From the NCBI GenBank assembly GCA_003695285.1, contig RFIL01000041.1, positions 1 to 30,440 on the forward strand: 30,440 nt of DNA. Direction: 5' to 3'. The translations under genes were made by a program, and so were the position numbers. Below, in pieces: positions 1 to 21,241 of the stretch. The notes beneath the pieces are model-generated. The model ran no database searches. It was given only the letters and a program-made list of their open reading frames with translations, and was not told where the DNA came from. How positions within the stretch are numbered: position 1 is the first letter of the stretch; the number at the start of each line of letters is the position of its first letter. Source of the DNA: Calditrichota bacterium. GTDB taxonomy: Bacteria > Calditrichota > Calditrichia > RBG-13-44-9 > J075.

Positions 1-185
1 TACTCCATCCCGAACCGCCAATGCGGATATCGGATTGGGAATCCTCCATATGCTGCCAGCTGGCTCATGGTATCATAATCCACCATCTCAAATATGACCG
101 GAAAAAAGTCCAACCCATATTCACGGGCATATGCTTCGATCTCGGGTTGCAGGGCAATTATATCTTCTTTAGTTGCGGCTTTCAT
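1..185 (-). CDS. spoVR: SpoVR/YcgB family protein, N-terminal part (runs off the left edge of the window)
   Basis: Not in the ORF track. Manual translation from the ATG at 185 (overlapping the yeaH stop as ATGA) gives [61 protein letters not shown], containing the SpoVR-type [16 protein letters not shown] motif. It follows prkA-yeaH. Confidence 0.93.
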
Positions 186-1288
186 TTTCCTTTCCCCAAA
201 AAATCTTTAATAGAATCATAAATTGCTTCTTTATCCGGGATGTACGATAGAATCAAATTATCATGCCCATCCAAATTCTCATCCAGGAAATCGATAAATT
301 CTCCACTACCATAGGTGCTTTCCACCTGACCATACCCGAATAAATTTACCCTGGGTAAAATTTCGTTTTTCAGCAGATCTGCACAGAGCCGGTTGTCCTC
401 ACGCGACCAGTTATCACCATCTGAAAAATGAAAGGCATAAATATTCCATTCATCTGGCGGATAATCCTGGTCAATAATCTGCTTGCATAGTTCATAAGCG
501 GTAGAGATGACAGTTCCTCCGTTTTCTCGAACACTAAAGAAGGTATCCCGGTCCACTTCATGAGCCTGTGCATCATGAATAATATAGCGAGTCACCAGAC
601 CTTTGTATTGATAATGCAGCCAGGTATCAATCCAGAATGTTTCTAAGCGAACGATTTGTTTTTGTTCATCCCACATCGAGCCGGAGACATCCATCATATA
701 GATAATAACCGCATTGCTTTGAGGTTGAGTGGTGGTCTTCCAGGATCGATAGCGGAAATCCTCACGAATGGGAACGATCTGGGGTTTTTCCATATTAAAC
801 TGGCCGGTGATGATCTGGCGCTTCAGAGCTTCACGAAATGTTCGTTTAAAATGTCGCAGGGATTCCGGTCCCACTTTGCTGATACCGGTATAGCGATCTT
901 TTTCCGAAACAATTTCCTTTTTCCCTTTGGGTTCAATGTTGGGCAGTTCCAATTCTTCAGCCAGAATTTCCGCCAGTTCTTCCAGGGTCAATTCAACCTC
1001 GCGAAGATGATAACCGGGTTCATTTCCGGCGTTCCCTGCTCCGGCTTCGCCATCGTCACCGCTCAAGGGGGTACCGGGTTCCCCTTCTCCCTGTCCGGCT
1101 CCACCTCGGCCATTATCCCCAAAACGGAAACGGGGTAAATCTATCTGTGGAAGAGGTATACTGATTAAATCCCGACCTTTTCTGCCAATCATTTCCCCAT
1201 TGGATATATATTTCCGCAGGTTCTCTTTGACCTTTCCTTTGATAATCTGGCGGAAACGATTGTAGTCATTATCAATGTGCATTAACAT
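182..1288 (-). CDS. yeaH: YeaH/YhbH (DUF444) family vWA-domain protein
   Basis: [19 protein letters not shown]-terminus, Gly-rich GQGEGEPG segment, MIDAS-like [17 protein letters not shown]. The ORF track starts at TTG 1333; ATG 1288 (or 1282), preceded by AAAGGGT, is the more likely start. Confidence 0.92.
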
Positions 1289-1353
1289 AATTAAAAACCC
1301 TTTATCTTTCCTTCGACCAGTTTCTTCTGGCAAAAAACTTACCTTTTATCAAC

Positions 1354-1377
1354 CCGGAGCCGGATGCCCGGCCCCGG
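1354..1377 (-). other. GC-rich stem-loop between prkA and yeaH (no U-tract; possible mRNA stability/processing element)
   Basis: Minus strand CCGGGGCCGG-GCAT-CCGGCTCCGG: 10-bp stem with one G:U pair, which works only on the minus-strand RNA. Followed by GTTGATAAAAGG, not poly-U. Confidence 0.55.
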
Positions 1378-1413
1378 TTTCATATTCATCTGCTTTGATG
1401 GAAAAATGCAATC

Positions 1414-1429
1414 GGCAAGTGAAATGCCA
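1414..1429 (-). promoter_or_regulatory. Candidate internal sigma54 (-24/-12) promoter for yeaH-spoVR
   Basis: Minus strand TGGCATTTCACTTGCC directly after the prkA TAA. GG-N10-GC spacing is exact; matches TGGCA-N6-TTGC. Confidence 0.45.
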
Positions 1430-3490
1430 TTATTCCTGGATATCACCCCGGGCAAAGATGCTGGCGACATAATTCAATACATCGGTCGCACTGTGTTCGT
1501 CGTATCCGAAATCTTTAATCAATCGCGCTTTCACAATATCAATCTTTTCCTGGGTTTCCTTATCCATCACCGAGGAGACCAGGGAGGATAATTTGATGCT
1601 ATCCTTCTGATCTTCAAACAGCTTTAATTCCAGGGCTTTTGCCAGGCGCTCATTGCTTCTCCAATCAAATTTCTTCCCTTCCAGGGAAAGTGCACCGATA
1701 TAATTCATAATTTCCCGACGGAAATCATCTTTTCGGCTTTCCGGAATATCAATTTTTTCCTCGATGGAGCGCATCAATTTTTCATTCGGCTCTTCATCTT
1801 CGCCGGTGTATTTGTTCTTCACTTTTTCCTTCTGTACATACGCTTTCACATTATCAATGTAATTGGCGAAGAGTCGCTTAATTCCTTCTTCATCAGCACT
1901 GATGGCTCGTTGCACTTCATTCTTGACGATTTCGGTGTATTCTTTCTTAACCACCTGTATCAACTCCCGATAACGTTTTTTGGTCTCCTCACTGGTAATC
2001 AGACTGTGATGATCCAGTCCGCTTTCCAGTTCATTTAAGACCATGAATGGATTCACTGTAGGTTCTTCCGGGAATTTAACAATGGCATTGGAAATTTTAT
2101 CCTGCACATAGCGCGGAGAGATTCCTTCCAGACCTTCCCGGACCGCTTCTTTCCGGAGTTCCCGGACATTATCCTCCGTGTATCCGGGGATAAGTTTGCC
2201 ATCATACAGTTTTAGCTTTTGTACCAGGGTTAAATCTGCTTTTTTGGGTTCTTCCAGACGAGTCAGCACCGCCCACATGGCCGCCATTTCGATGGTGTGA
2301 GGGGCAATAAATTTTCCGCGGATTTTTTCGTTATTGTAATCCTTCTTATAAATCTTTATCTCTTCCGACCACTTGGTAATATAGGGAATATCCACCTTCA
2401 CCGTTCTATCGCGAAGGGCCTCCATAAACTCATTATTCTGGAGTTTGCGATATTCCGGTTCATTGGTATGTCCGATGATGACCTCATCAATATCAGTTTG
2501 GGGAAATTTTTTCGGCTTAATTTTATGTTCCTGGCTGGCACTCAACAGATCATAGAGAAAGGCCACATCCAGCTTCAACATTTCGATGAATTCGATGATA
2601 CCGCGATTGGCAATGTTAAACTCGCCGTCAAAATTAAACGCCCGGGGATCGGAATCTGAGCCATATTCCGCAATCTTTCGATAATTAATATCTCCGGTTA
2701 GCTCGGTAGAATCCTGGTTTTTCTCATCCTTCGGTTGGAACGTTCCAATTCCGATGCGATCCTTTTCAGAGAGCAGAATTCGTTTCACCCGAACATGTTC
2801 CAGAACCTTCATCCAGTCGCCATTGTGCATTTCCACTAAACCGCGATAAATTTGACGACAACTGGGGCACAATCCACCTTCGACATATACCTCTTCGAAC
2901 TTATTGCCCAGCAATCCACGGAGAAATTCTTCTCGAATACCTTCCGGGATGATATGAAGGGGTTCTTCGTGCATCGGACAGGCGATATTCTCATGGGGAG
3001 AAGTTTCCACATCCTCAAAAAATTTGGGGACATTAATCCACTCAAAGGAATATAATGCGCCTTCCTCCGTTCGGGAATAATGCTCCAGCCCTTTTTTCAT
3101 TAATCGCACAATTGTACTCTTAGAACTTCCCACCGGTCCGTGTAAGAGTAGCACCCGACGCTCGGTTCCATAGCGATAAGCTGCCGATTTGATAGCGTTC
3201 ATCAGCTTCATCAGATACGCGTCTAACCCGAAGACCGCATCTTTTCCATTGTCAATGGGGTCATCAAAAAACTTGTAATGAATCATCTTCTTTCGTGAGT
3301 CTTCATACTCTTCGACACCGAAGGAAAGAATCATATCATACAAGCGCTGATATGCGGTTCGGGTGACCTTGGGATTTTTCTTTACCAGCTCCAGATATTC
3401 CTCGAAAGAGCCTGTCCAGGTAAGCGCCTGGAACTCTTTGTCGAAGTACTTTTGCTGGATATTCGTGAGTAATTGGGTTGGTGATGCCAT
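1430..3490 (-). CDS. prkA: PrkA/YeaG family AAA+ ATPase ('serine protein kinase')
   Basis: Walker [10 protein letters not shown], Walker B-like [38 protein letters not shown]; RBS AAGGAG upstream of ATG 3490; operon with yeaH and spoVR. Confidence 0.96.
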
Positions 3491-5660: not shown

Positions 5661-6749
5661 ATGGTACCAACAGTAACCTCACGGGCTCCCGGTAAAATCA
5701 TTTTCCTGGGTGAGTATGCCGTTTTAAAAGGTGCACCGGCCATCGTGGCGGCAATGAACCGTTTTGCAACCGTGAGGGTTTCCCCCTCGCAACAGGGATT
5801 CTCCCTTTACTCCCCTTTAATTCATCCTGAAAAATTGACCTTTTCCCTGGACGATAACAAACAACCTCAGTTCTTATCCCTTCCTCCAGAGGTGCTTACA
5901 AAATTACTTTTCTTCTCCACCACCTTTGAGTTTGCTGTTAGAGAACTCTCCAGGAGACAATTGCCCCTTCATCCTGCTGAAATTGAATTAGATACTTCTG
6001 ACTTTTACCTTGGTAAAGATGATCTTAAATTGGGTCTTGGTTCCAGTGCTGCCTTAACCGTTGCGCTCCTGGCAGCTCTTTATGAATACGCTGGTATTTC
6101 TCTGAGAGATGAAGAAGCCCGTTTACATTTGCTTCAGATGGCACTGGATGCGCATCGGGTAGCGCAGAAAAAAATCGGAAGTGGGGTGGATATCGCAGCC
6201 AGTACTTTTGGCGGGGTGTTAGAATTTCAAAGAATGGAGGAGACACTCACTCAACCGGTTTACCTGGAGGAAGTGGAACTCCCCCCAAATTTGTATTATC
6301 TGTTTGTCTGGAGTGGAACACCAGCCTCCACCTCCCGGTTGGTAAAACAGGTTGAAGAATGGGAAACTCTGCACCCGAAACAAGCTCAAGAACTTTATCG
6401 GAAAATGATCGATCTTTGTAAAACCGGTTGTGAGGCTATCAAAATCGGCGATACAAATCAATTTTTAGAGATAGTAGATTCTTACTATCATTATTTGCAT
6501 GAACTGGGCAAACAAAGTGGTGCTCCGATTGTTTCCCCGGTTCATCAGCACCTGGCTGATCTGGTAAAGGAAGCAGGCGGGTTTTATAAACCCTCAGGGG
6601 CCGGAGAAGGGGATCTGGGGATTGCTTTTACCAACTCTCCGGAAACGGCTGAAAATATCAAGAGGCATCTTACTTCAGCCGGTTTTACCGTGCTTCCCTT
6701 AGAAATTGAAAAAGATGGTGTTCAATGTCAAATAAAAGAGGGTCATTGA
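5661..6749 (+). CDS. mvaK2: Phosphomevalonate kinase (GHMP kinase family)
   Basis: RAPGKIIFLGEYAVL, KLGLGSSAAL, GSGVDIAASTFGG, KPSGAGEGDLG motifs; sits in a mevalonate gene cluster. Confidence 0.85.
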   Translation: MVPTVTSRAPGKIIFLGEYAVLKGAPAIVAAMNRFATVRVSPSQQGFSLYSPLIHPEKLTFSLDDNKQPQFLSLPPEVLTKLLFFSTTFEFAVRELSRRQLPLHPAEIELDTSDFYLGKDDLKLGLGSSAALTVALLAALYEYAGISLRDEEARLHLLQMALDAHRVAQKKIGSGVDIAASTFGGVLEFQRMEETLTQPVYLEEVELPPNLYYLFVWSGTPASTSRLVKQVEEWETLHPKQAQELYRKMIDLCKTGCEAIKIGDTNQFLEIVDSYYHYLHELGKQSGAPIVSPVHQHLADLVKEAGGFYKPSGAGEGDLGIAFTNSPETAENIKRHLTSAGFTVLPLEIEKDGVQCQIKEGH

Positions 6750-6751
6750 TC

Positions 6752-8995
6752 ATGGATTCAAGAATACCCAAATTTTACAAACATTCGGTTCTGGAACGGC
6801 TGGAAATTCTTCGGGAACGAGAGATTCTTTCCCCTGAAGATTTTAAAATTTTAGCCAATGGCAGTAATATCCTGAATGCTGAGGAAGCAGACAAAATGGT
6901 GGAAAACGTCATTGGCGTGTTTACCTTACCTATTGGCCTGGGACTCAATTTTTTGATCAATGATAAAGACTATGTGGTGCCCATGGTTGTGGAGGAACCC
7001 TCTATTATCGCAGCAGTAAGCTCGGCCGCGAAAACAGTGCGCAATGCTGGCGGATTTCGGAGTAAAAGCACTGATCCGATTCTCATCGGTCAAATTCAGG
7101 TGGTGGATATCGAACATCCCTCTCATGCCCAGAAAGCAATTTTACAAAACAAAGAAGAAATACTCAACTTAGCCAACAGTCTTCATCCTAAAATGGTAGC
7201 CCGGGGGGGAGGAGCCAAGGATTTAGAAGTCATCATTCACCCCTCTTCCTCCCATCGAGGAGATATGCTTATTGTTCATTTGCTGGTCGATACCCGTGAT
7301 GCCATGGGGGCCAATCTGGTGAACAGCATGTGCGAAGGAGTGGCCTCTTTAATTGAAAAAATCACCAATGGAAAAGTCTTTTTGCGGATTTTATCCAATC
7401 TGACTGACCGTGCTCTGGTGGAGGCTGAATGCACTATCCCCACCCGGTTATTAGCTGGTAAAGGGTATAGTGGTGAAGAGGTTCGCGATGGAATTATTCT
7501 GGCCAATGAATTTGCCATGGCGGATCCCTATCGCGCCGCCACTCATAATAAAGGCATCATGAACGGGATTGATGCCGTAGCTCTGGCCACCGGAAACGAC
7601 TGGCGAGCAATTGAAGCCGCTGCCCATGCCTACGCCGCCAGGGGCCATGCTTATACCTCATTAACCCGATGGTATAAAAACGACCAGGGTGATCTGGTAG
7701 GAAAGATAAAAATACCGATGAAGGTGGGTATTGTAGGGGGACCGGTTCAATCCAACCCCACAGTGGGAATTTTACTCCGACTAATGCGGGTGGCAACGGC
7801 AACCGAGCTTGCCGAGGTGATGGGGGCTGTGGGATTGGCGCAAAACTTTTCAGCCCTCCGGGCCCTTTCCACAGAAGGTATCCAGAAGGGGCACATGACG
7901 CTCCATGCCCGCACTGTTGCCATGGCTGCCGGGGCTTCTCCGGATATTTTTGATGAAGTAGTGGACCAATTAATCAAAAGTGGTGAAATCAAAGTATGGA
8001 AGGCGGAGGAGATTGTGAAACAAATTCGAACTCGTGAAGAAGAGCCCCAAAAGGTAGAAGAAATCAAGGAAGCGGAAAAGTTAGCCTCCGGCAGTGGGAA
8101 GGTGATTCTCTTCGGTGAACATGCTGCTGTTTATGGAAGCCATGTGATTGCCGCTCCTATTCCCATCGCCATTCAGGCTAAAGTGGAGGATGAAAATGAT
8201 GGTATTCATCTGGTAATTCCACGCTGGGGGGTGGAAGAACGACTGCACATGGATACCGAGCATAAACACTCCATCTATCAATCTCTTGACCTGATCATCA
8301 ATACCCTGGGATTAAAAGACAAAAACATGCGGATTGAGGTTTATCCTAATGTTCCCAGAGCAATGGGGCTTGGAGGTTCAGCTGCTCTGGCGGTTGCGAT
8401 TATTCGTGCCCTCTCTCAGCACTATCAACTGAATTTATCTGATGATGATGTTAACAAACTGGCATTTGAATCTGAAAAGATTGTCCATGGAACTCCCTCC
8501 GGGATTGATAATACCATGGCCACTTATGGGAAATTCATCCTCTTCCGAAAGGGTGAACCCCCATTAATGAAACCGATTGATGTTCCCCATCCCATCCCCA
8601 TCGTGATTGGTCTTTCCGGGGTTGAAAGTCTCACTGCTAAAATGGTGGCGCACGTCCGGAAAGCATGGGAAAAAAATCAGGCGCTTTATGATAAGATTTT
8701 CAAGGAAATTGACGAACTCGCCCTGCAGGCTGTCAAAGCCATTCAAAATTATGACCTTGAAAAACTGGGAGAATTGATGAATATTAATCAGGGATTGCTA
8801 AATGCTCTGCAGGTATCCAGCTGGGAACTGGAAGAACTCATCCAGATTGCCCGGAATTCGGGAGCGCTGGGTGCCAAATTAACCGGAGGTGGAGGTGGAG
8901 GTGCCATGATAGCCCTCTGTCCCGATAAGGCAGAACAGGTGGCTGAGGCGATGCGAAAAGCTGGTTATAAAGCCATCATCACTGAGTTGCGCTAA
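6752..8995 (+). CDS. Class II HMG-CoA reductase fused in frame to a C-terminal mevalonate kinase
   Basis: HMGR part (~6752-8030): VVEEPSIIAA, DAMGAN, THNKGIMNG, GNDWRAIEA, IQKGHMTLHAR. MVK part (~8081-8995): GSGKVILFGEHAAVYG, PRAMGLGGSAAL, HGTPSGIDN, GAKLTGGGGGG. The likely start is ATG 6752 (RBS AGAGGG) rather than 6725. Confidence 0.93.
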   Translation: MDSRIPKFYKHSVLERLEILREREILSPEDFKILANGSNILNAEEADKMVENVIGVFTLPIGLGLNFLINDKDYVVPMVVEEPSIIAAVSSAAKTVRNAGGFRSKSTDPILIGQIQVVDIEHPSHAQKAILQNKEEILNLANSLHPKMVARGGGAKDLEVIIHPSSSHRGDMLIVHLLVDTRDAMGANLVNSMCEGVASLIEKITNGKVFLRILSNLTDRALVEAECTIPTRLLAGKGYSGEEVRDGIILANEFAMADPYRAATHNKGIMNGIDAVALATGNDWRAIEAAAHAYAARGHAYTSLTRWYKNDQGDLVGKIKIPMKVGIVGGPVQSNPTVGILLRLMRVATATELAEVMGAVGLAQNFSALRALSTEGIQKGHMTLHARTVAMAAGASPDIFDEVVDQLIKSGEIKVWKAEEIVKQIRTREEEPQKVEEIKEAEKLASGSGKVILFGEHAAVYGSHVIAAPIPIAIQAKVEDENDGIHLVIPRWGVEERLHMDTEHKHSIYQSLDLIINTLGLKDKNMRIEVYPNVPRAMGLGGSAALAVAIIRALSQHYQLNLSDDDVNKLAFESEKIVHGTPSGIDNTMATYGKFILFRKGEPPLMKPIDVPHPIPIVIGLSGVESLTAKMVAHVRKAWEKNQALYDKIFKEIDELALQAVKAIQNYDLEKLGELMNINQGLLNALQVSSWELEELIQIARNSGALGAKLTGGGGGGAMIALCPDKAEQVAEAMRKAGYKAIITELR

Positions 8996-9066: not shown

Positions 9067-9630
9067 ATGAGTAATAATGACCAGCAAGTTTCTTTTGATG
9101 ATGAGATGCTGATTCTTGTGGATGAGAATGATAATATAATTGGTTATGAGAACAAACTGGCGTGTCATCGTGGGGAGGGGCTTCTCCACCGCGCTTTCTC
9201 TATTTTTATCTTCAATGACCGCAAAGAGTTATTACTCCAACAGCGGAGTGAACAAAAACATCTCTGGCCTCTGTACTGGTCTAACAGTTGTTGTAGCCAT
9301 CCCCGGAAAGGAGAAGATCTGGAAAATGCCACCCAACGCCGCCTGGCGGAAGAGCTTGGTATTAGCACCCCACTCAAACACCTGTTCACTTTTCAATACC
9401 ATGCCAGATATAAAAACGTCGGTTCAGAGAGGGAGGTTTGTGCTGTCTTGATCGGTAAAAGCAATGATCCCATTTCAGTCAATCCCACTGAGATTGCCGA
9501 TTGGAAATACATTGGCATTAATGAGTTGACTCAGGAACTCGCCAAACACCCGGAAAAATATACACCATGGTTAAAAATGGAGTGGGAACGATTGATGGTA
9601 GAGCACCTGGACGATATTATGGCATTATAG
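9067..9630 (+). CDS. idi: Isopentenyl-diphosphate delta-isomerase type 1 (Nudix fold)
   Basis: LHRAFSIFIFN, LLLQQRS, NSCCSHP, RRLAEELG, EREVC motifs; RBS AGGAGA. Confidence 0.96.
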   Translation: MSNNDQQVSFDDEMLILVDENDNIIGYENKLACHRGEGLLHRAFSIFIFNDRKELLLQQRSEQKHLWPLYWSNSCCSHPRKGEDLENATQRRLAEELGISTPLKHLFTFQYHARYKNVGSEREVCAVLIGKSNDPISVNPTEIADWKYIGINELTQELAKHPEKYTPWLKMEWERLMVEHLDDIMAL

Positions 9631-17401: not shown

Positions 17402-18478
17402 TTATTCATTAGGGGTAATCAATGTCAAATCAACTCGTGCTTCTAAGGTCCCTCCGGAAATAATCTGTGAATTCTGGGGATAAACGGAGATTTTGTTAAA
17501 TTTTACTGCAGGAAAATCCCTGGCTATCTGACTGAAAAAACTAAACAGAGCATTCTTATTACCGGAAATCCTCAGATAATAAGCGGTGGTAGAGGTGGTC
17601 GCTTTGCGGAAATGGGCACCTTTCAGGAACCGGATGATTCGAACCCCGTTGGTAGAAGCTAACCTACGAATAGCGGGTATTACATCCCGTTCTTCCAATG
17701 CCTCTTTAAAATCACCACCACCCGAGGCGGGTGAATTGGGGAGTGGAACATAAAAATCCGCCTGAAGCTTTTTCTGATCTTCTATAATCTTCTCTGTGAT
17801 ACTTTCAACTGACATCTGAATATCCGGGAAACGGTCTTTGACCGTGCGACGGAAACGAGCTATCTCATCTCGGGAATCGGCCAGAATACTAATGTAAAGG
17901 GCACCGGGGGTCATCACCACCAACGACACCCCCATATCCCGAGTACTGCTATTCACAAAATTCGTAGCATAATTCAGGTTAAATGTGTTCTCACTTTTAT
18001 TCCGGAGATATGCATTTTTTAATGGGGCCGGTAAAACCGGGGTAGAGGCTGTCGGCACCGTTGAAGGAACTGTTGTTTGAGGTTCTGCGGGAGGTTGCTC
18101 AGGTGTTTTGGTTGCCGTAGGTTCCCGTTCCGGTCCTAACCATAATAACACGAACAATGCCGCTAACAGGAGAACACCAATAATCCCCAGAATAATAAAG
18201 AGCCGTTTCTTTTTCGGTGATTCATAAGAAAAACTTTCCTCCTCCCCACTTTCTACCGTTGGGGTGGAGTCGAACAGCACCCCTTCCTCAGTTTCTGGTT
18301 CACTGACGGGTTCCGGAGCCGGGATGGTGGTTCTGTTCTCTGGAGGTTCTTCTTCCGGCTGGATAAATGAAAAATCCATCTCAGTCTTGCTGCTTTCCTC
18401 CGATGGAGTTTCCATCCGTTTTTCCTGAGAGGAAGAATCCTCTTCTTCAGGAGTATTTAACAGATTGATTTTAACCAT
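17402..18478 (-). CDS. Bitopic membrane protein, putative PilN-PilO fusion
   Basis: N-terminal MVKINLL (PilN-type INLL), acidic/Pro-rich linker, KKKR plus TM helix, a first alpha/beta unit (GALYISILADSRDEIARFRR, PilN-like) and a second (YLRISGNKNALFSFFSQIA...LEARVDL, PilO-like). Pattern recognition only. Confidence 0.55.
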   Translation of the reverse strand: MVKINLLNTPEEEDSSSQEKRMETPSEESSKTEMDFSFIQPEEEPPENRTTIPAPEPVSEPETEEGVLFDSTPTVESGEEESFSYESPKKKRLFIILGIIGVLLLAALFVLLWLGPEREPTATKTPEQPPAEPQTTVPSTVPTASTPVLPAPLKNAYLRNKSENTFNLNYATNFVNSSTRDMGVSLVVMTPGALYISILADSRDEIARFRRTVKDRFPDIQMSVESITEKIIEDQKKLQADFYVPLPNSPASGGGDFKEALEERDVIPAIRRLASTNGVRIIRFLKGAHFRKATTSTTAYYLRISGNKNALFSFFSQIARDFPAVKFNKISVYPQNSQIISGGTLEARVDLTLITPNE

Positions 18479-18504
18479 GATCTGTCCTCAAAAATGTTGA
18501 GCAA

Positions 18505-19446
18505 TTAAAAAATATTGGAAAGAGGCTCTACAAAACGATAGGCATTGGTCACATCTAAATTTTCATCCTCTGAAAGCACCTGCCATTCCGTAGATTCCAG
18601 GGGATTAAACACCCTTAAAGGTAACTGACATTTATCTCTTAGAGTTCCCAACCAATCACTCTTAAAATAATAACCAAACAGAAACACCTGAGTAATGGAA
18701 TAAGCAGAACTATCTTCTTCAGCCATTTTTTGAAAATCCTGGAGGGCCTTTTCAAACACTGAAAAAACATCCGCAGTATTCAATTGATCAATTGGCAACA
18801 TCGAACGGGTATAAGGTTTAAATGTAAAGTTTAAAAAATTCTTTTCATCAGAGAGAATAAATTCCAATCCACGTTCCGTGAAATTGACCAGAAGAGTTTG
18901 ACCGATCACATTGGGAAAAAATTTTCGAAAGATTTCATCAATGGCAAAACAGTTCAGATTCATCTGTGATAGCTGAAAACCGGCCTCCCGCGCAATTTGT
19001 CGAGTAAATTCATAAATTTGCTTACGGATGGCCACGGCCAGAAGTTCTTTCATCCCCGATAATTCGCGCTCATAATCCGGTTGATACACTATAAATTCCT
19101 CTACCGGTGAAGTTAAAATATAATTTAACTCGGCCTTTATCAGGGAAAGATATTGGTTCTCGGGGATAAACTGATCCACCAGCACTTTCTTAACAAACCC
19201 CATCCGGGCGGAAAGCAAGAATCGAACGTTCTCGCTACTGAATTCTGCTTTCTCAGCCATCCCTTTTAATTGGTTTGCAATCTGGAGGGCTGTCGTGGTT
19301 TTCTGAAGATTATCATAATTAAGGATAAAGGGTAGCGGTCCTTCAGCTACCCTTTTGATAGAAACACTTTGCCCACCCGTCACTTCCGCCTGGACCCAAC
19401 TGATATAGTTGTCTTGAAAAGCAATACTGTTAATTGTTTCACTCAT
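18505..19446 (-). CDS. PilM-like actin-fold protein with degenerate ATP motifs
   Basis: SIAFQDNYISWVQ (in place of GLDIG), LLAVAIRK, AREAGFQLSQMNLNCFAI, LLVNFTERG, QVFLFG, LPLRVFNP follow the PilM layout; lies directly upstream of the INLL protein. Confidence 0.6.
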   Translation of the reverse strand: MSETINSIAFQDNYISWVQAEVTGGQSVSIKRVAEGPLPFILNYDNLQKTTTALQIANQLKGMAEKAEFSSENVRFLLSARMGFVKKVLVDQFIPENQYLSLIKAELNYILTSPVEEFIVYQPDYERELSGMKELLAVAIRKQIYEFTRQIAREAGFQLSQMNLNCFAIDEIFRKFFPNVIGQTLLVNFTERGLEFILSDEKNFLNFTFKPYTRSMLPIDQLNTADVFSVFEKALQDFQKMAEEDSSAYSITQVFLFGYYFKSDWLGTLRDKCQLPLRVFNPLESTEWQVLSEDENLDVTNAYRFVEPLSNIF

Positions 19447-19455
19447 AATACTCGT

Positions 19456-21171
19456 TTAGTCTTCCGACTCCCAACTCTTGGTTCCATTACTGATATATCC
19501 ATGATTGATGTGTTTCTTTGTGAACACACCATAAACTCGTTCATGGTATCCATTCAAAGCTTCCAGCAGAGATTCTTCGATGCTGGATCTGGCATTGCGT
19601 AAATTAACGGCATCCTGAGGGTTAAATGTGGATTTTAACTCCTCCACGATACCAAAAACCTTCTCATACTCCGGATATATCGCCGGGACATCTTTTTTGA
19701 TCCGCACATCGATTAATGAATCCAACGCCTGAATTTTCTGACCGAAGAACTGTAATCGTTTTTCCAGATCTCCTACCTGTCGGGTTTCCACCCGGGTGGC
19801 AAGAGTATCCAGTGGATTGAGCAGATCTTCAACCATTGGTTTTAACACCGACAGCTTTTTCTCAGTCTGAACGGTATCGATAAAGGTTCTCACCCTTTGA
19901 GAATAACGATAGAAGAGCACATTGTCAAGCGATTGCATCTCCGCCACAATTTCTTTCAAATTTAACACAACTTCCCCACTCTTATCCAGGCGGATTAACC
20001 GATAGCGCTCTTTAACAAAATTCATATAGTTAATCGTGCTATCCAGGTGAGCCCGAACTTTATCCAGGTATGGGAACCAACTCACCTGTTGCAGCGGAGT
20101 CGTTGCTTCCATTAAACGCTCATGAAAAGTATTTAACAAATTCGGACATTCCACCACCAGATTGGTACTATTCGGTTTATAGCTAATGATATACCGCTCT
20201 GTGCCATCAAAGGTGTCCGGGCAGGTAAAATTCCGTTGGTTAAAACCAATGAGCATGGAATCCACTTCATCCAGTCTCAAGATCCCTGGTTGTTGGGTGA
20301 TCAAAAAATTATCGTGGGTGATAAAATCATTATAGATTCCACTCAACGCCTGTTTCTGGGTATCCAAAAGATTGATATTTTGCTGAATATCAATTTGTTG
20401 AAATTCTTTCATGGCTGTATTGATACGATCGATAAATTTTTTCAATCGATCTGCCACACTGGTCACTTTAACCAGATCGGTTTTCTTAATATCCTTCACA
20501 AAATTAAAAATTTTAGTGTATTCGCTGCCCCAGAAATCATCAACAGCCGTCATTTCCACATTGGGCAAGAGATATTCCAGAGAATCAACATAGCGAAGTG
20601 CTAACAGTGCTGTGGTCTGTAAATCCTCCTCATTGATACGTTCCTGTAGCCCATATAGAGAATCCACATAAAGTGTTGCCCGGGCAAAATTCGGAAAGGA
20701 AACACTGGTGTTGAACTTTTCTAAATCCCTTAAAATATCATCTTTCTGGACAACCAGATGATCATAGCGATTAAAATAGCGGGTATTAAATTGGAGATCA
20801 CCGTTAATTTCATCTACCGCTTGTGAAATGGGGACCAGCGCACTGAAGACCGGAAGTTCCAGCACACTATGAATGCTATTATAAAGAGCATTGGTTAATT
20901 CATTAATTTTTTGTTTCACCTGAATGGTGCTATCGTTCTGGATAAATGCCGCAAGTTTTTCCAGTGAATCTGCCGGTAAATAGGAATTGGTTCTGGTATA
21001 ATAAAAACGTTCCGCTTCGTATACCGTTTCAAGATTTTTTCGGCCGATAGTGGTCATTCGTTTTTCTTCCGTCCAAATTTTATTCGGAATGGTGATCGTC
21101 GCCCATAACATCGCGGCAAGAACCACGATCAGTAGCTTTAAAACAATTGACCCCTTCGCTTTCGCCGCCAT
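19456..21171 (-). CDS. Large (571 aa) type IV pilin-like protein with a non-canonical class III signal peptide
   Basis: MAAKAKG|SIVLKLLIVVLAAMLWATITIP has P22 in pilin register, followed by G36, L40, Y50 and Y51; a single Cys pair (C-x24-C); mostly helical body. ATG 21171 has RBS GGAGGAG (the ORF track starts at TTG 21183). Confidence 0.55.
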   Translation of the reverse strand: MAAKAKGSIVLKLLIVVLAAMLWATITIPNKIWTEEKRMTTIGRKNLETVYEAERFYYTRTNSYLPADSLEKLAAFIQNDSTIQVKQKINELTNALYNSIHSVLELPVFSALVPISQAVDEINGDLQFNTRYFNRYDHLVVQKDDILRDLEKFNTSVSFPNFARATLYVDSLYGLQERINEEDLQTTALLALRYVDSLEYLLPNVEMTAVDDFWGSEYTKIFNFVKDIKKTDLVKVTSVADRLKKFIDRINTAMKEFQQIDIQQNINLLDTQKQALSGIYNDFITHDNFLITQQPGILRLDEVDSMLIGFNQRNFTCPDTFDGTERYIISYKPNSTNLVVECPNLLNTFHERLMEATTPLQQVSWFPYLDKVRAHLDSTINYMNFVKERYRLIRLDKSGEVVLNLKEIVAEMQSLDNVLFYRYSQRVRTFIDTVQTEKKLSVLKPMVEDLLNPLDTLATRVETRQVGDLEKRLQFFGQKIQALDSLIDVRIKKDVPAIYPEYEKVFGIVEELKSTFNPQDAVNLRNARSSIEESLLEALNGYHERVYGVFTKKHINHGYISNGTKSWESED

Positions 21172-21241
21172 AGACTCCTCCAAAGTGTTAGTGTGATAAA
21201 ACAGTTCTAATATACTACTCTGAATAGTTTAAAAACGGAAA

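Follow-up and report, generated by a model that had tools for sequence, protein, structure and literature searches.

Contig RFIL01000041.1 of the Calditrichota bacterium assembly GCA_003695285.1, analyzed here over its positions 1 to 30,440 (hereafter "the window"), carries a gene whose product appears to join two consecutive enzymes of the mevalonate pathway, a class II HMG-CoA reductase (HMGR) and a mevalonate kinase (MVK), in one polypeptide chain. The questions raised by this locus are whether such a fusion is real and, if so, what its product does. The fusion is real and of ancient origin, and it occurs commonly across several phyla of bacteria. Its product is, judging by sequence, very likely a bifunctional biosynthetic enzyme consisting of an HMGR half and an MVK half and encoded by the middle gene of a three-gene cassette, between genes for a phosphomevalonate kinase (PMK) and an isopentenyl-diphosphate isomerase (IDI).

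The gene (Table 1) is a single uninterrupted frame of 747 codons and a stop. Its start at ATG 6752 is preceded by a GAGGG Shine-Dalgarno sequence, lies 2 nt past the TGA codon (6747-6749) of the upstream gene, and is consistent with the alignments of homologs and of the Pseudomonas mevalonii HMGR, which begin at residues 1 to 3 of the fusion; an earlier ATG at 6725 would extend the frame into the upstream gene, creating an overlap. Pfam recognizes HMG-CoA_red (PF00368; residues 13-386, E value of 1e-112), GHMP_N (residues 508-592), and GHMP_C (residues 660-739). The NCBIfam models for class II HMGR (TIGR00532, residues 1-386) and mevalonate kinase (TIGR00549, residues 449-722) score 427 bits against a cutoff of 260 and 262 bits against a cutoff of 163, respectively. 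A second MVK model, NF003036, gives 240 bits, under its cutoff of 403, and models for PMK, galactokinase, and homoserine kinase score far below the MVK models on the C-terminal half. Pfam detects no thiolase domain and the HMGR begins at residue 1, so the protein is not of the MvaE type. The preliminary description of this locus, made from the nucleotide sequence without database searches, as one frame joining a class II HMGR with its E, K, D, and H motifs to a complete MVK is thus borne out, with both family models passing their cutoffs and the motif residues now placed by alignment (see below).

The same gene is found well beyond this assembly. The 120 best-matching protein clusters (68-86% identity, 745-769 aa) all contain the three domains and come from independent assemblies labeled Calditrichaeota, Calditrichia, Caldithrix abyssi, or KSB1. 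Among whole genomes, 30 of 31 relatives and 79 of the 86 members of the phylum contain it as a full-length single frame; of the 53 genomes with a completeness of 90% or more, 52 do so. Every partial match in the phylum is located at a contig end. Three closed single-contig genomes (G007, G023, and G036) are among those with the full frame. At the read level, the available data are short Logan contigs from a hot-spring metagenome, the probable source of this genome, and from a microbial-mat metagenome; none of these spans the whole gene. A single 151-nt contig from another study bridges positions 8014-8164 with no indel, which gives the linker read support in the sense of "no contradiction," one short contig being too thin for anything stronger. 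An assembly or sequencing artifact, or a very recent stop codon loss joining adjacent mvaA and mvk genes only in this metagenome-assembled genome (MAG), would fit this thin read-level support. Unfused neighboring HMGR-then-MVK gene pairs exist in Myxococcus, Corallococcus, and Bacillaceae, so such joining would be mechanistically easy. This explanation is nevertheless extremely improbable, as the same junction, with its conserved flanks W416 and K450, recurs in all 120 clusters from independent assemblies, the fusion is found in the closed genomes, and the bridging contig shows no indel. It is because the junction is kept across independent assemblies that the fusion has to be considered genuine. 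The earlier observation that the junction offers no ATG start is correct (no in-frame Met occurs between M382 and M538, hence none in the linker), and so is the conclusion drawn from it that the junction is not a recently lost stop codon, since it is common to the whole phylum and to several other phyla.

The N-terminal half aligns with the P. mevalonii HMGR from end to end (residues 1-426 with residues 3-426 of the 428-residue chain in PDB entry 1QAX; E value of 3e-123), so that the C-terminal flap with the catalytic His is included; it also aligns with the Delftia acidovorans (6DIO) and Burkholderia enzymes. Residues E82, K267, N271, D283, and H381, which the 1QAX alignment equates with P. 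mevalonii E83, K267, N271, D283, and H381, are invariant across 120 homologs. In the cofactor helix, R151 is present and H145 stands where the P. mevalonii enzyme has D146, in agreement with the earlier remark that the helix keeps the Arg and lacks that Asp; H145 and R151 are invariant in the same 120 homologs, and position 147 is occupied by K, N, or R. Miller and Kung (2018), as quoted in a 2026 Protein Science article (PMC13488460), gave the motif Dx(V/L)xxxL for NADH and (H/Y)xSxxxR for NADPH. Compared with the motifs as quoted there, the HxKxxxR of the fusion fits the NADPH pattern in its H and R and lacks the NADH-type D and L, and the preferred cofactor is probably NADPH. The original assignment to the NADPH type is supported by the H...R pair, with the reservation that the third position is K instead of S.

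A catabolic role, in which the class II reductase would run oxidatively from mevalonate to HMG-CoA as in P. mevalonii, might be suggested by the name of the best NCBIfam model ("HMG-CoA reductase, degradative" for TIGR00532) and by the nearest solved structures, which are those of the NADH-dependent Delftia, P. mevalonii, and Burkholderia enzymes. Such a role is very improbable: the joining of a mevalonate-consuming kinase to a mevalonate-oxidizing enzyme makes no catabolic sense, the genes on either side encode PMK and IDI, the cofactor helix is devoid of the Asp and Leu of the quoted NADH motif, and genes of the methylerythritol phosphate (MEP) pathway were not found in the genome, so that a biosynthetic mevalonate route is needed. 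TIGR00532, moreover, is a model for all class II enzymes, those with a biosynthetic role in Gram-positive cocci among them.

The C-terminal half matches the mevalonate kinases of Leishmania major (2HFS, E value of 2e-47) and Methanosarcina mazei (6MDE, E value of 2e-42) in the PDB and also aligns with the Staphylococcus enzyme. It contains motif I (G449-K450...E456-H457), motif II with G541 and S543, followed by E575 and D586, and motif III with the glycine loop K709-LTGGGGGG (K709-G717). Residues of this half are presumably equivalent to K13, S146, E193, and D204 of the rat enzyme. K450, E456, H457, S543, E575, D586, and the K709-G717 loop are invariant in 51 fusions of 33-86% identity; catalytic residues of the HMGR half are likewise invariant over these 51 fused homologs, down to 33% identity. 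By its motifs and model scores, the C-terminal half is probably a mevalonate kinase rather than a PMK or another GHMP kinase, and phosphorylation at C5 is the predicted reaction.

The same genome encodes another HMGR, the class I protein P0121 (513 aa; contig C551:5334-6872, locus L001:1075-2616). It is apparently intact, has the archaeal Methanothermococcus enzyme as its closest match (6HR7, E value of 1e-83), contains the class I motifs TTEG, DKK, and GQD and a C-terminal His, and carries an additional 135-residue N-terminal domain, PF25653. Contamination as the origin of its contig is ruled out by the presence of class I HMGR in all 15 genomes of the family to which the window belongs (f1), including a single-contig genome. 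It is also encoded in 3 of 4 genomes of a second family. In a third family of this order (f3), 11 genomes yielded no class I HMGR, and no HMGR other than the fused one was seen there. The HMGR that the whole order has in common is the fusion, to which part of the order adds a class I enzyme. The adjoining WS/DGAT gene was considered as a functional partner of the class I HMGR and rejected, because the two genes remain neighbors only in the nearest relative.

With an apparently intact class I HMGR native to the family, the HMGR half of the fusion might be redundant; alternatively, the MVK half might act as a sensor of mevalonate or ATP, as fused domains at times decay into regulatory modules. 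That one half is dead or regulatory in either of these ways is improbable in view of the invariance of the catalytic and nucleotide-binding residues of both halves across distant fusions and the lack of class I HMGR matches in the third family. Further, when the whole fusion was used to search this and related genomes, the matches other than the fusion itself were all to GHMP kinases and weak, and a second MVK was not found.

The genomic context points to biosynthesis. The upstream GHMP kinase is a probable PMK; its best NCBIfam model is the PMK model TIGR01220 (125 bits, under the cutoff of 165.7), and its best PDB match is Listeria Lin0012 (3K17, E value of 2e-25). A PMK gene upstream and an IDI gene downstream of the fusion are found in most loci across phyla, and the PMK/HMGR-MVK/IDI order is conserved across phyla within the main clade of fused proteins (see below); in a separately fused lineage of Ignavibacteriota, the PMK gene is located downstream instead. 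Elsewhere in the genome, a MAG of 3.58 Mb in 587 contigs estimated to be 89% complete, there are a diphosphomevalonate decarboxylase gene cut by a contig end and a fragment of an archaeal-type HMG-CoA synthase (HMGS) gene (contig C406:9-494, locus L005). In the closed genome of the relative G007, an archaeal-type HMGS gene (C1:5080294-5081322, locus L105; 530 bits with NF003274) is followed by that of a Thiolase_C_1-type thiolase, the same HMGS-then-thiolase arrangement as in archaeal HMGS/thiolase operons. The HMGS of this phylum belongs to the archaeal type. The best explanation of this gene set is a complete classical mevalonate pathway with archaeal-type HMGS and thiolase and with the decarboxylase encoded elsewhere. 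Neither DXS (best score, 57 bits) nor IspH was found in the genome at its 89% completeness, so the cell probably makes isopentenyl diphosphate (IPP) by the mevalonate pathway alone. The proposal of a biosynthetic bifunctional enzyme in the preliminary description is therefore upheld by two complete and conserved domains, by the flanking PMK and IDI genes, and by the failure to find DXS and IspH.

The linker is the sole poorly conserved stretch of the fusion, with indel-containing columns in which E (16.5%) and K (15.9%) are frequent; the invariant residues W416 and K450 are 28 to 42 residues apart, with a mode of 34. The charged linker of the preliminary reading was given with the correct sequence and corresponds to residues 426-446. 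In the AlphaFold2 (AF2) model, built on the alignment of the 51 fusions, the mean pLDDT is 87.4, and values under 50 are confined to residues 430-442; the predicted TM-score (pTM) of 0.62 is in line with two domains that have no fixed mutual orientation. Foldseek relates the HMGR half to ternary complexes of the P. mevalonii enzyme (9dcp, TMt of 0.95) and the MVK half to M. mazei MVK (6mde, TMt of 0.89), with no solved chain covering both halves among its matches. A complex prediction for the HMGR half (residues 1-428) and the MVK half (residues 445-747) scored 0.00, which counts neither for nor against docking.

These features are compatible with the following mechanism. The class II HMGR half would convert HMG-CoA to mevalonate, probably with NADPH, and the MVK half, carried on a disordered tether of about 18 residues, would convert mevalonate to mevalonate 5-phosphate, the fusion providing a fixed 1:1 stoichiometry of reductase and kinase. 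In the P. mevalonii HMGR, the flap covers the active site when closed and has to open before the product can leave. The kinase of the fusion would hang from the last helix of this flap, which gates product release, and would thereby be held within a few nanometers of the mevalonate exit. Class II HMGRs are freely reversible, and ATP-driven phosphorylation would be expected to pull the reductase forward and to limit the loss of free mevalonate. The benefit would be one of proximity, not of a sealed channel. A bolder version, which we consider tentative and on balance unlikely, is that the attachment to the flap is itself functional, with each flap opening handing mevalonate to the tethered kinase and making the reductase effectively irreversible, that the two HMGRs feed separate isoprenoid pools where the class I enzyme is present, and that a mobile "lower mevalonate" cassette seeded at least seven phyla.

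Several points weigh against the bifunctional biosynthetic enzyme. For every member of the family, we infer the activities of both halves from sequence. The third position of the cofactor motif is K, N, or R and not the S of the motif as quoted from Miller and Kung, so that the preference for NADPH remains a prediction. The class I HMGR is also present and native to the family, so the HMGR half of the fusion is not demonstrably essential in this genome. In a MAG that is 89% complete and divided into 587 contigs, the absence of MEP genes and of a second MVK means "not found" only. Finally, the AF2 model, with its pTM of 0.62, predicts no docked HMGR/MVK interface. The channeling of mevalonate envisaged in the preliminary description is not supported: the linker is predicted to be disordered, and the two domains share no predicted interface; true (sealed) channeling would be speculation.

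Table 1. Features of the fused gene and its neighbors in the window
Feature	Residues	Positions (nt)	Strand	Basis
Fused HMGR-MVK gene		6752..8995	+	Single frame; both family models above curated cutoffs; same full-length frame in 79/86 phylum genomes
Class II HMGR domain	1-425	6752..8026	+	End-to-end alignment to 1QAX and 6DIO; model match 9dcp
Cofactor helix H145-P-K-M-V-A-R151 (NADPH-like)	145-151	7184..7204	+	Aligned with P. mevalonii D146-Q-L-L-N-S-L152
C-terminal flap	~375-425	7874-8026	+	Helices present in AF2 model
Interdomain linker	~426-444	8027..8083	+	Charged, variable, predicted disordered
Mevalonate kinase domain	445-747	8084..8992	+	PDB matches 2HFS and 6MDE; model match 6mde
Upstream GHMP kinase, probable PMK		5661..6749	+	Stop 2 nt before fusion ATG; TIGR01220, 3K17
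Downstream type 1 IDI (Nudix)		9067..9630	+	NF002995, 169 bits (cutoff 127); TIGR02150, 161 bits

The fusion is far from rare. About 20 clusters at 50% clustering are full-length fusions, and 43 of the 80 best loci, taken from one genome per GTDB species, encode it as a single open reading frame (ORF). These include gammaproteobacterial loci from Rhodanobacteraceae, Woeseiaceae, Nevskia, Chiayiivirga, and others, as well as an alphaproteobacterial MAG, Acidobacteriota, Balneolota, Ignavibacteriota, Nakamurella, Methylomirabilota, and a myxococcal (Myxococcota) MAG. Adjacent but separate HMGR and MVK genes are found in cultured Myxococcus and Corallococcus and in Bacillaceae such as Virgibacillus and Oceanobacillus. 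The fusion, for which the preliminary description had proposed a domain-architecture search to gauge its distribution, is common in public genomes.

In a FastTree phylogeny of 173 HMGR domains, a clade with a support value of 98 contains 55 sequences, 49 of them fused and 4 more fused but partly sampled. The phyla are intermixed within this clade, which points to transfer of the cassette, and further fused lineages are placed elsewhere in the tree. The clade is recovered in a "quick" IQ-TREE phylogeny of 84 sequences (support value of 97). A single origin of all HMGR-MVK fusions is rejected by the approximately unbiased (AU) test at p 0.0002, for a group defined with knowledge of a first tree, and with trees of "quick" or FastTree grade. 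The simplest reading is that one old fusion would have been carried between phyla as a three-gene cassette and that a few other fusions would have arisen independently. HMGR-MVK-Nudix (type 1 IDI) triple fusions of 928-952 aa (P0123, P0125, and L041:5983-8814), encoded in Woeseiaceae-like Gammaproteobacteria, nest in the main fused clade; their third domain corresponds to the next gene of the cassette.

Stand-alone class II HMGRs (P. mevalonii 1QAX/4I4B, D. acidovorans 6DIO, Burkholderia cenocepacia 6P7K, and Streptococcus pneumoniae 5WPJ) share with the fusion, at about 50% identity, the entire fold including the flap and the catalytic E, K, N, D, and H residues, in keeping with the TMt value for the P. 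mevalonii enzyme given above. They differ in that the last flap helix of the fusion continues into the linker and a 300-residue kinase; in addition, the three proteobacterial NADH-dependent enzymes have Dx(V/L)xxxL, as the motif is quoted, where the fusion has HxKxxxR. Similarly, stand-alone MVKs (2HFS, 6MDE, and Staphylococcus aureus 2X7I) have the same motifs I to III, catalytic Lys and Asp, and fold as the MVK half, whose N terminus, however, is not free but directly adjoins the linker, with the motif I Lys 5 residues further on. MvaE of Enterococcus faecalis, a fusion of acetoacetyl-CoA thiolase with class II HMGR, is likewise a natural bifunctional protein of the mevalonate pathway, but its partner domain is N-terminal and catalyzes a nonconsecutive step (step 1 joined with step 3), whereas the partner in the HMGR-MVK fusion is C-terminal and catalyzes the very next step. 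The adjacent mvaA-mvk pairs of Myxococcus, Corallococcus, Virgibacillus, and Oceanobacillus show the fusion's order of HMGR and MVK and are related to it in sequence; unlike the fusion, they are two ORFs in different frames, and they likely represent the pre-fusion state.

Other fusions of class II HMGR were seen in the course of this survey. They include a reversed MVK-HMGR protein (P0142), GHMP-kinase-HMGR proteins (P0148, P0160, and P0181), an MvaE-type thiolase-HMGR (P0223), an HMGR with a squalene-hopene-cyclase-like domain (P0159), and HMGR-polyprenyl synthase-squalene/phytoene synthase proteins (P0167 and P0189; 1162-1453 aa). From these architectures, it is evident that many partners can be accommodated at the C terminus of class II HMGR.

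The HMGR-MVK fusion is a widespread, real, and uncharacterized variant of known enzymes rather than a rarity. The statement in the preliminary description that no biochemical characterization was known agrees with the full-text literature, in which, with most subscription journals outside the coverage, neither a characterization nor a description of the architecture was found. The fusion is not mentioned in a 2026 review on the diversity of isoprenoid pathways in bacteria or in the work of Hoshino and Gaucher (2018). New here are the phylum-wide count, the coresident class I HMGR, the conserved mobile cassette, and evidence for one dominant fusion event alongside several independent ones.

In NCBI, the product name of the fusion proteins is only "hydroxymethylglutaryl-CoA reductase, degradative," which conceals the kinase half and implies the wrong physiological direction. 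With the kinase half so hidden, MVK will wrongly be scored as missing when pathways are reconstructed for Calditrichota and many Gammaproteobacteria. Flux through the mevalonate pathway is controlled at the HMGR step, and the fusion represents a natural and widely successful design in which the reductase is tied to the ATP-driven step that follows. It offers a ready-made part for metabolic engineering of isoprenoids and a case in which an effect of tethering consecutive enzymes on flux can be tested. That the mevalonate pathway has spread laterally among bacteria is documented, in turn, by the clade of mixed phyla and by the conserved cassette of three genes.

Elsewhere in the window, a gene pair encoding a DUF444 (YeaH-like) protein and a PrkA (YeaG-like) serine kinase occupies the left end (182-3490, minus strand). 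Three consecutive ORFs of 358, 313, and 575 aa with no Pfam match at an E value of 1e-5 (17402-21183, minus strand) are located between rsmD/coaD and an alpha/beta hydrolase gene. The remaining genes are of the housekeeping kind and encode citrate synthase, ICDH, FtsEX with an M23 peptidase, Asd, TamB, and BamA.

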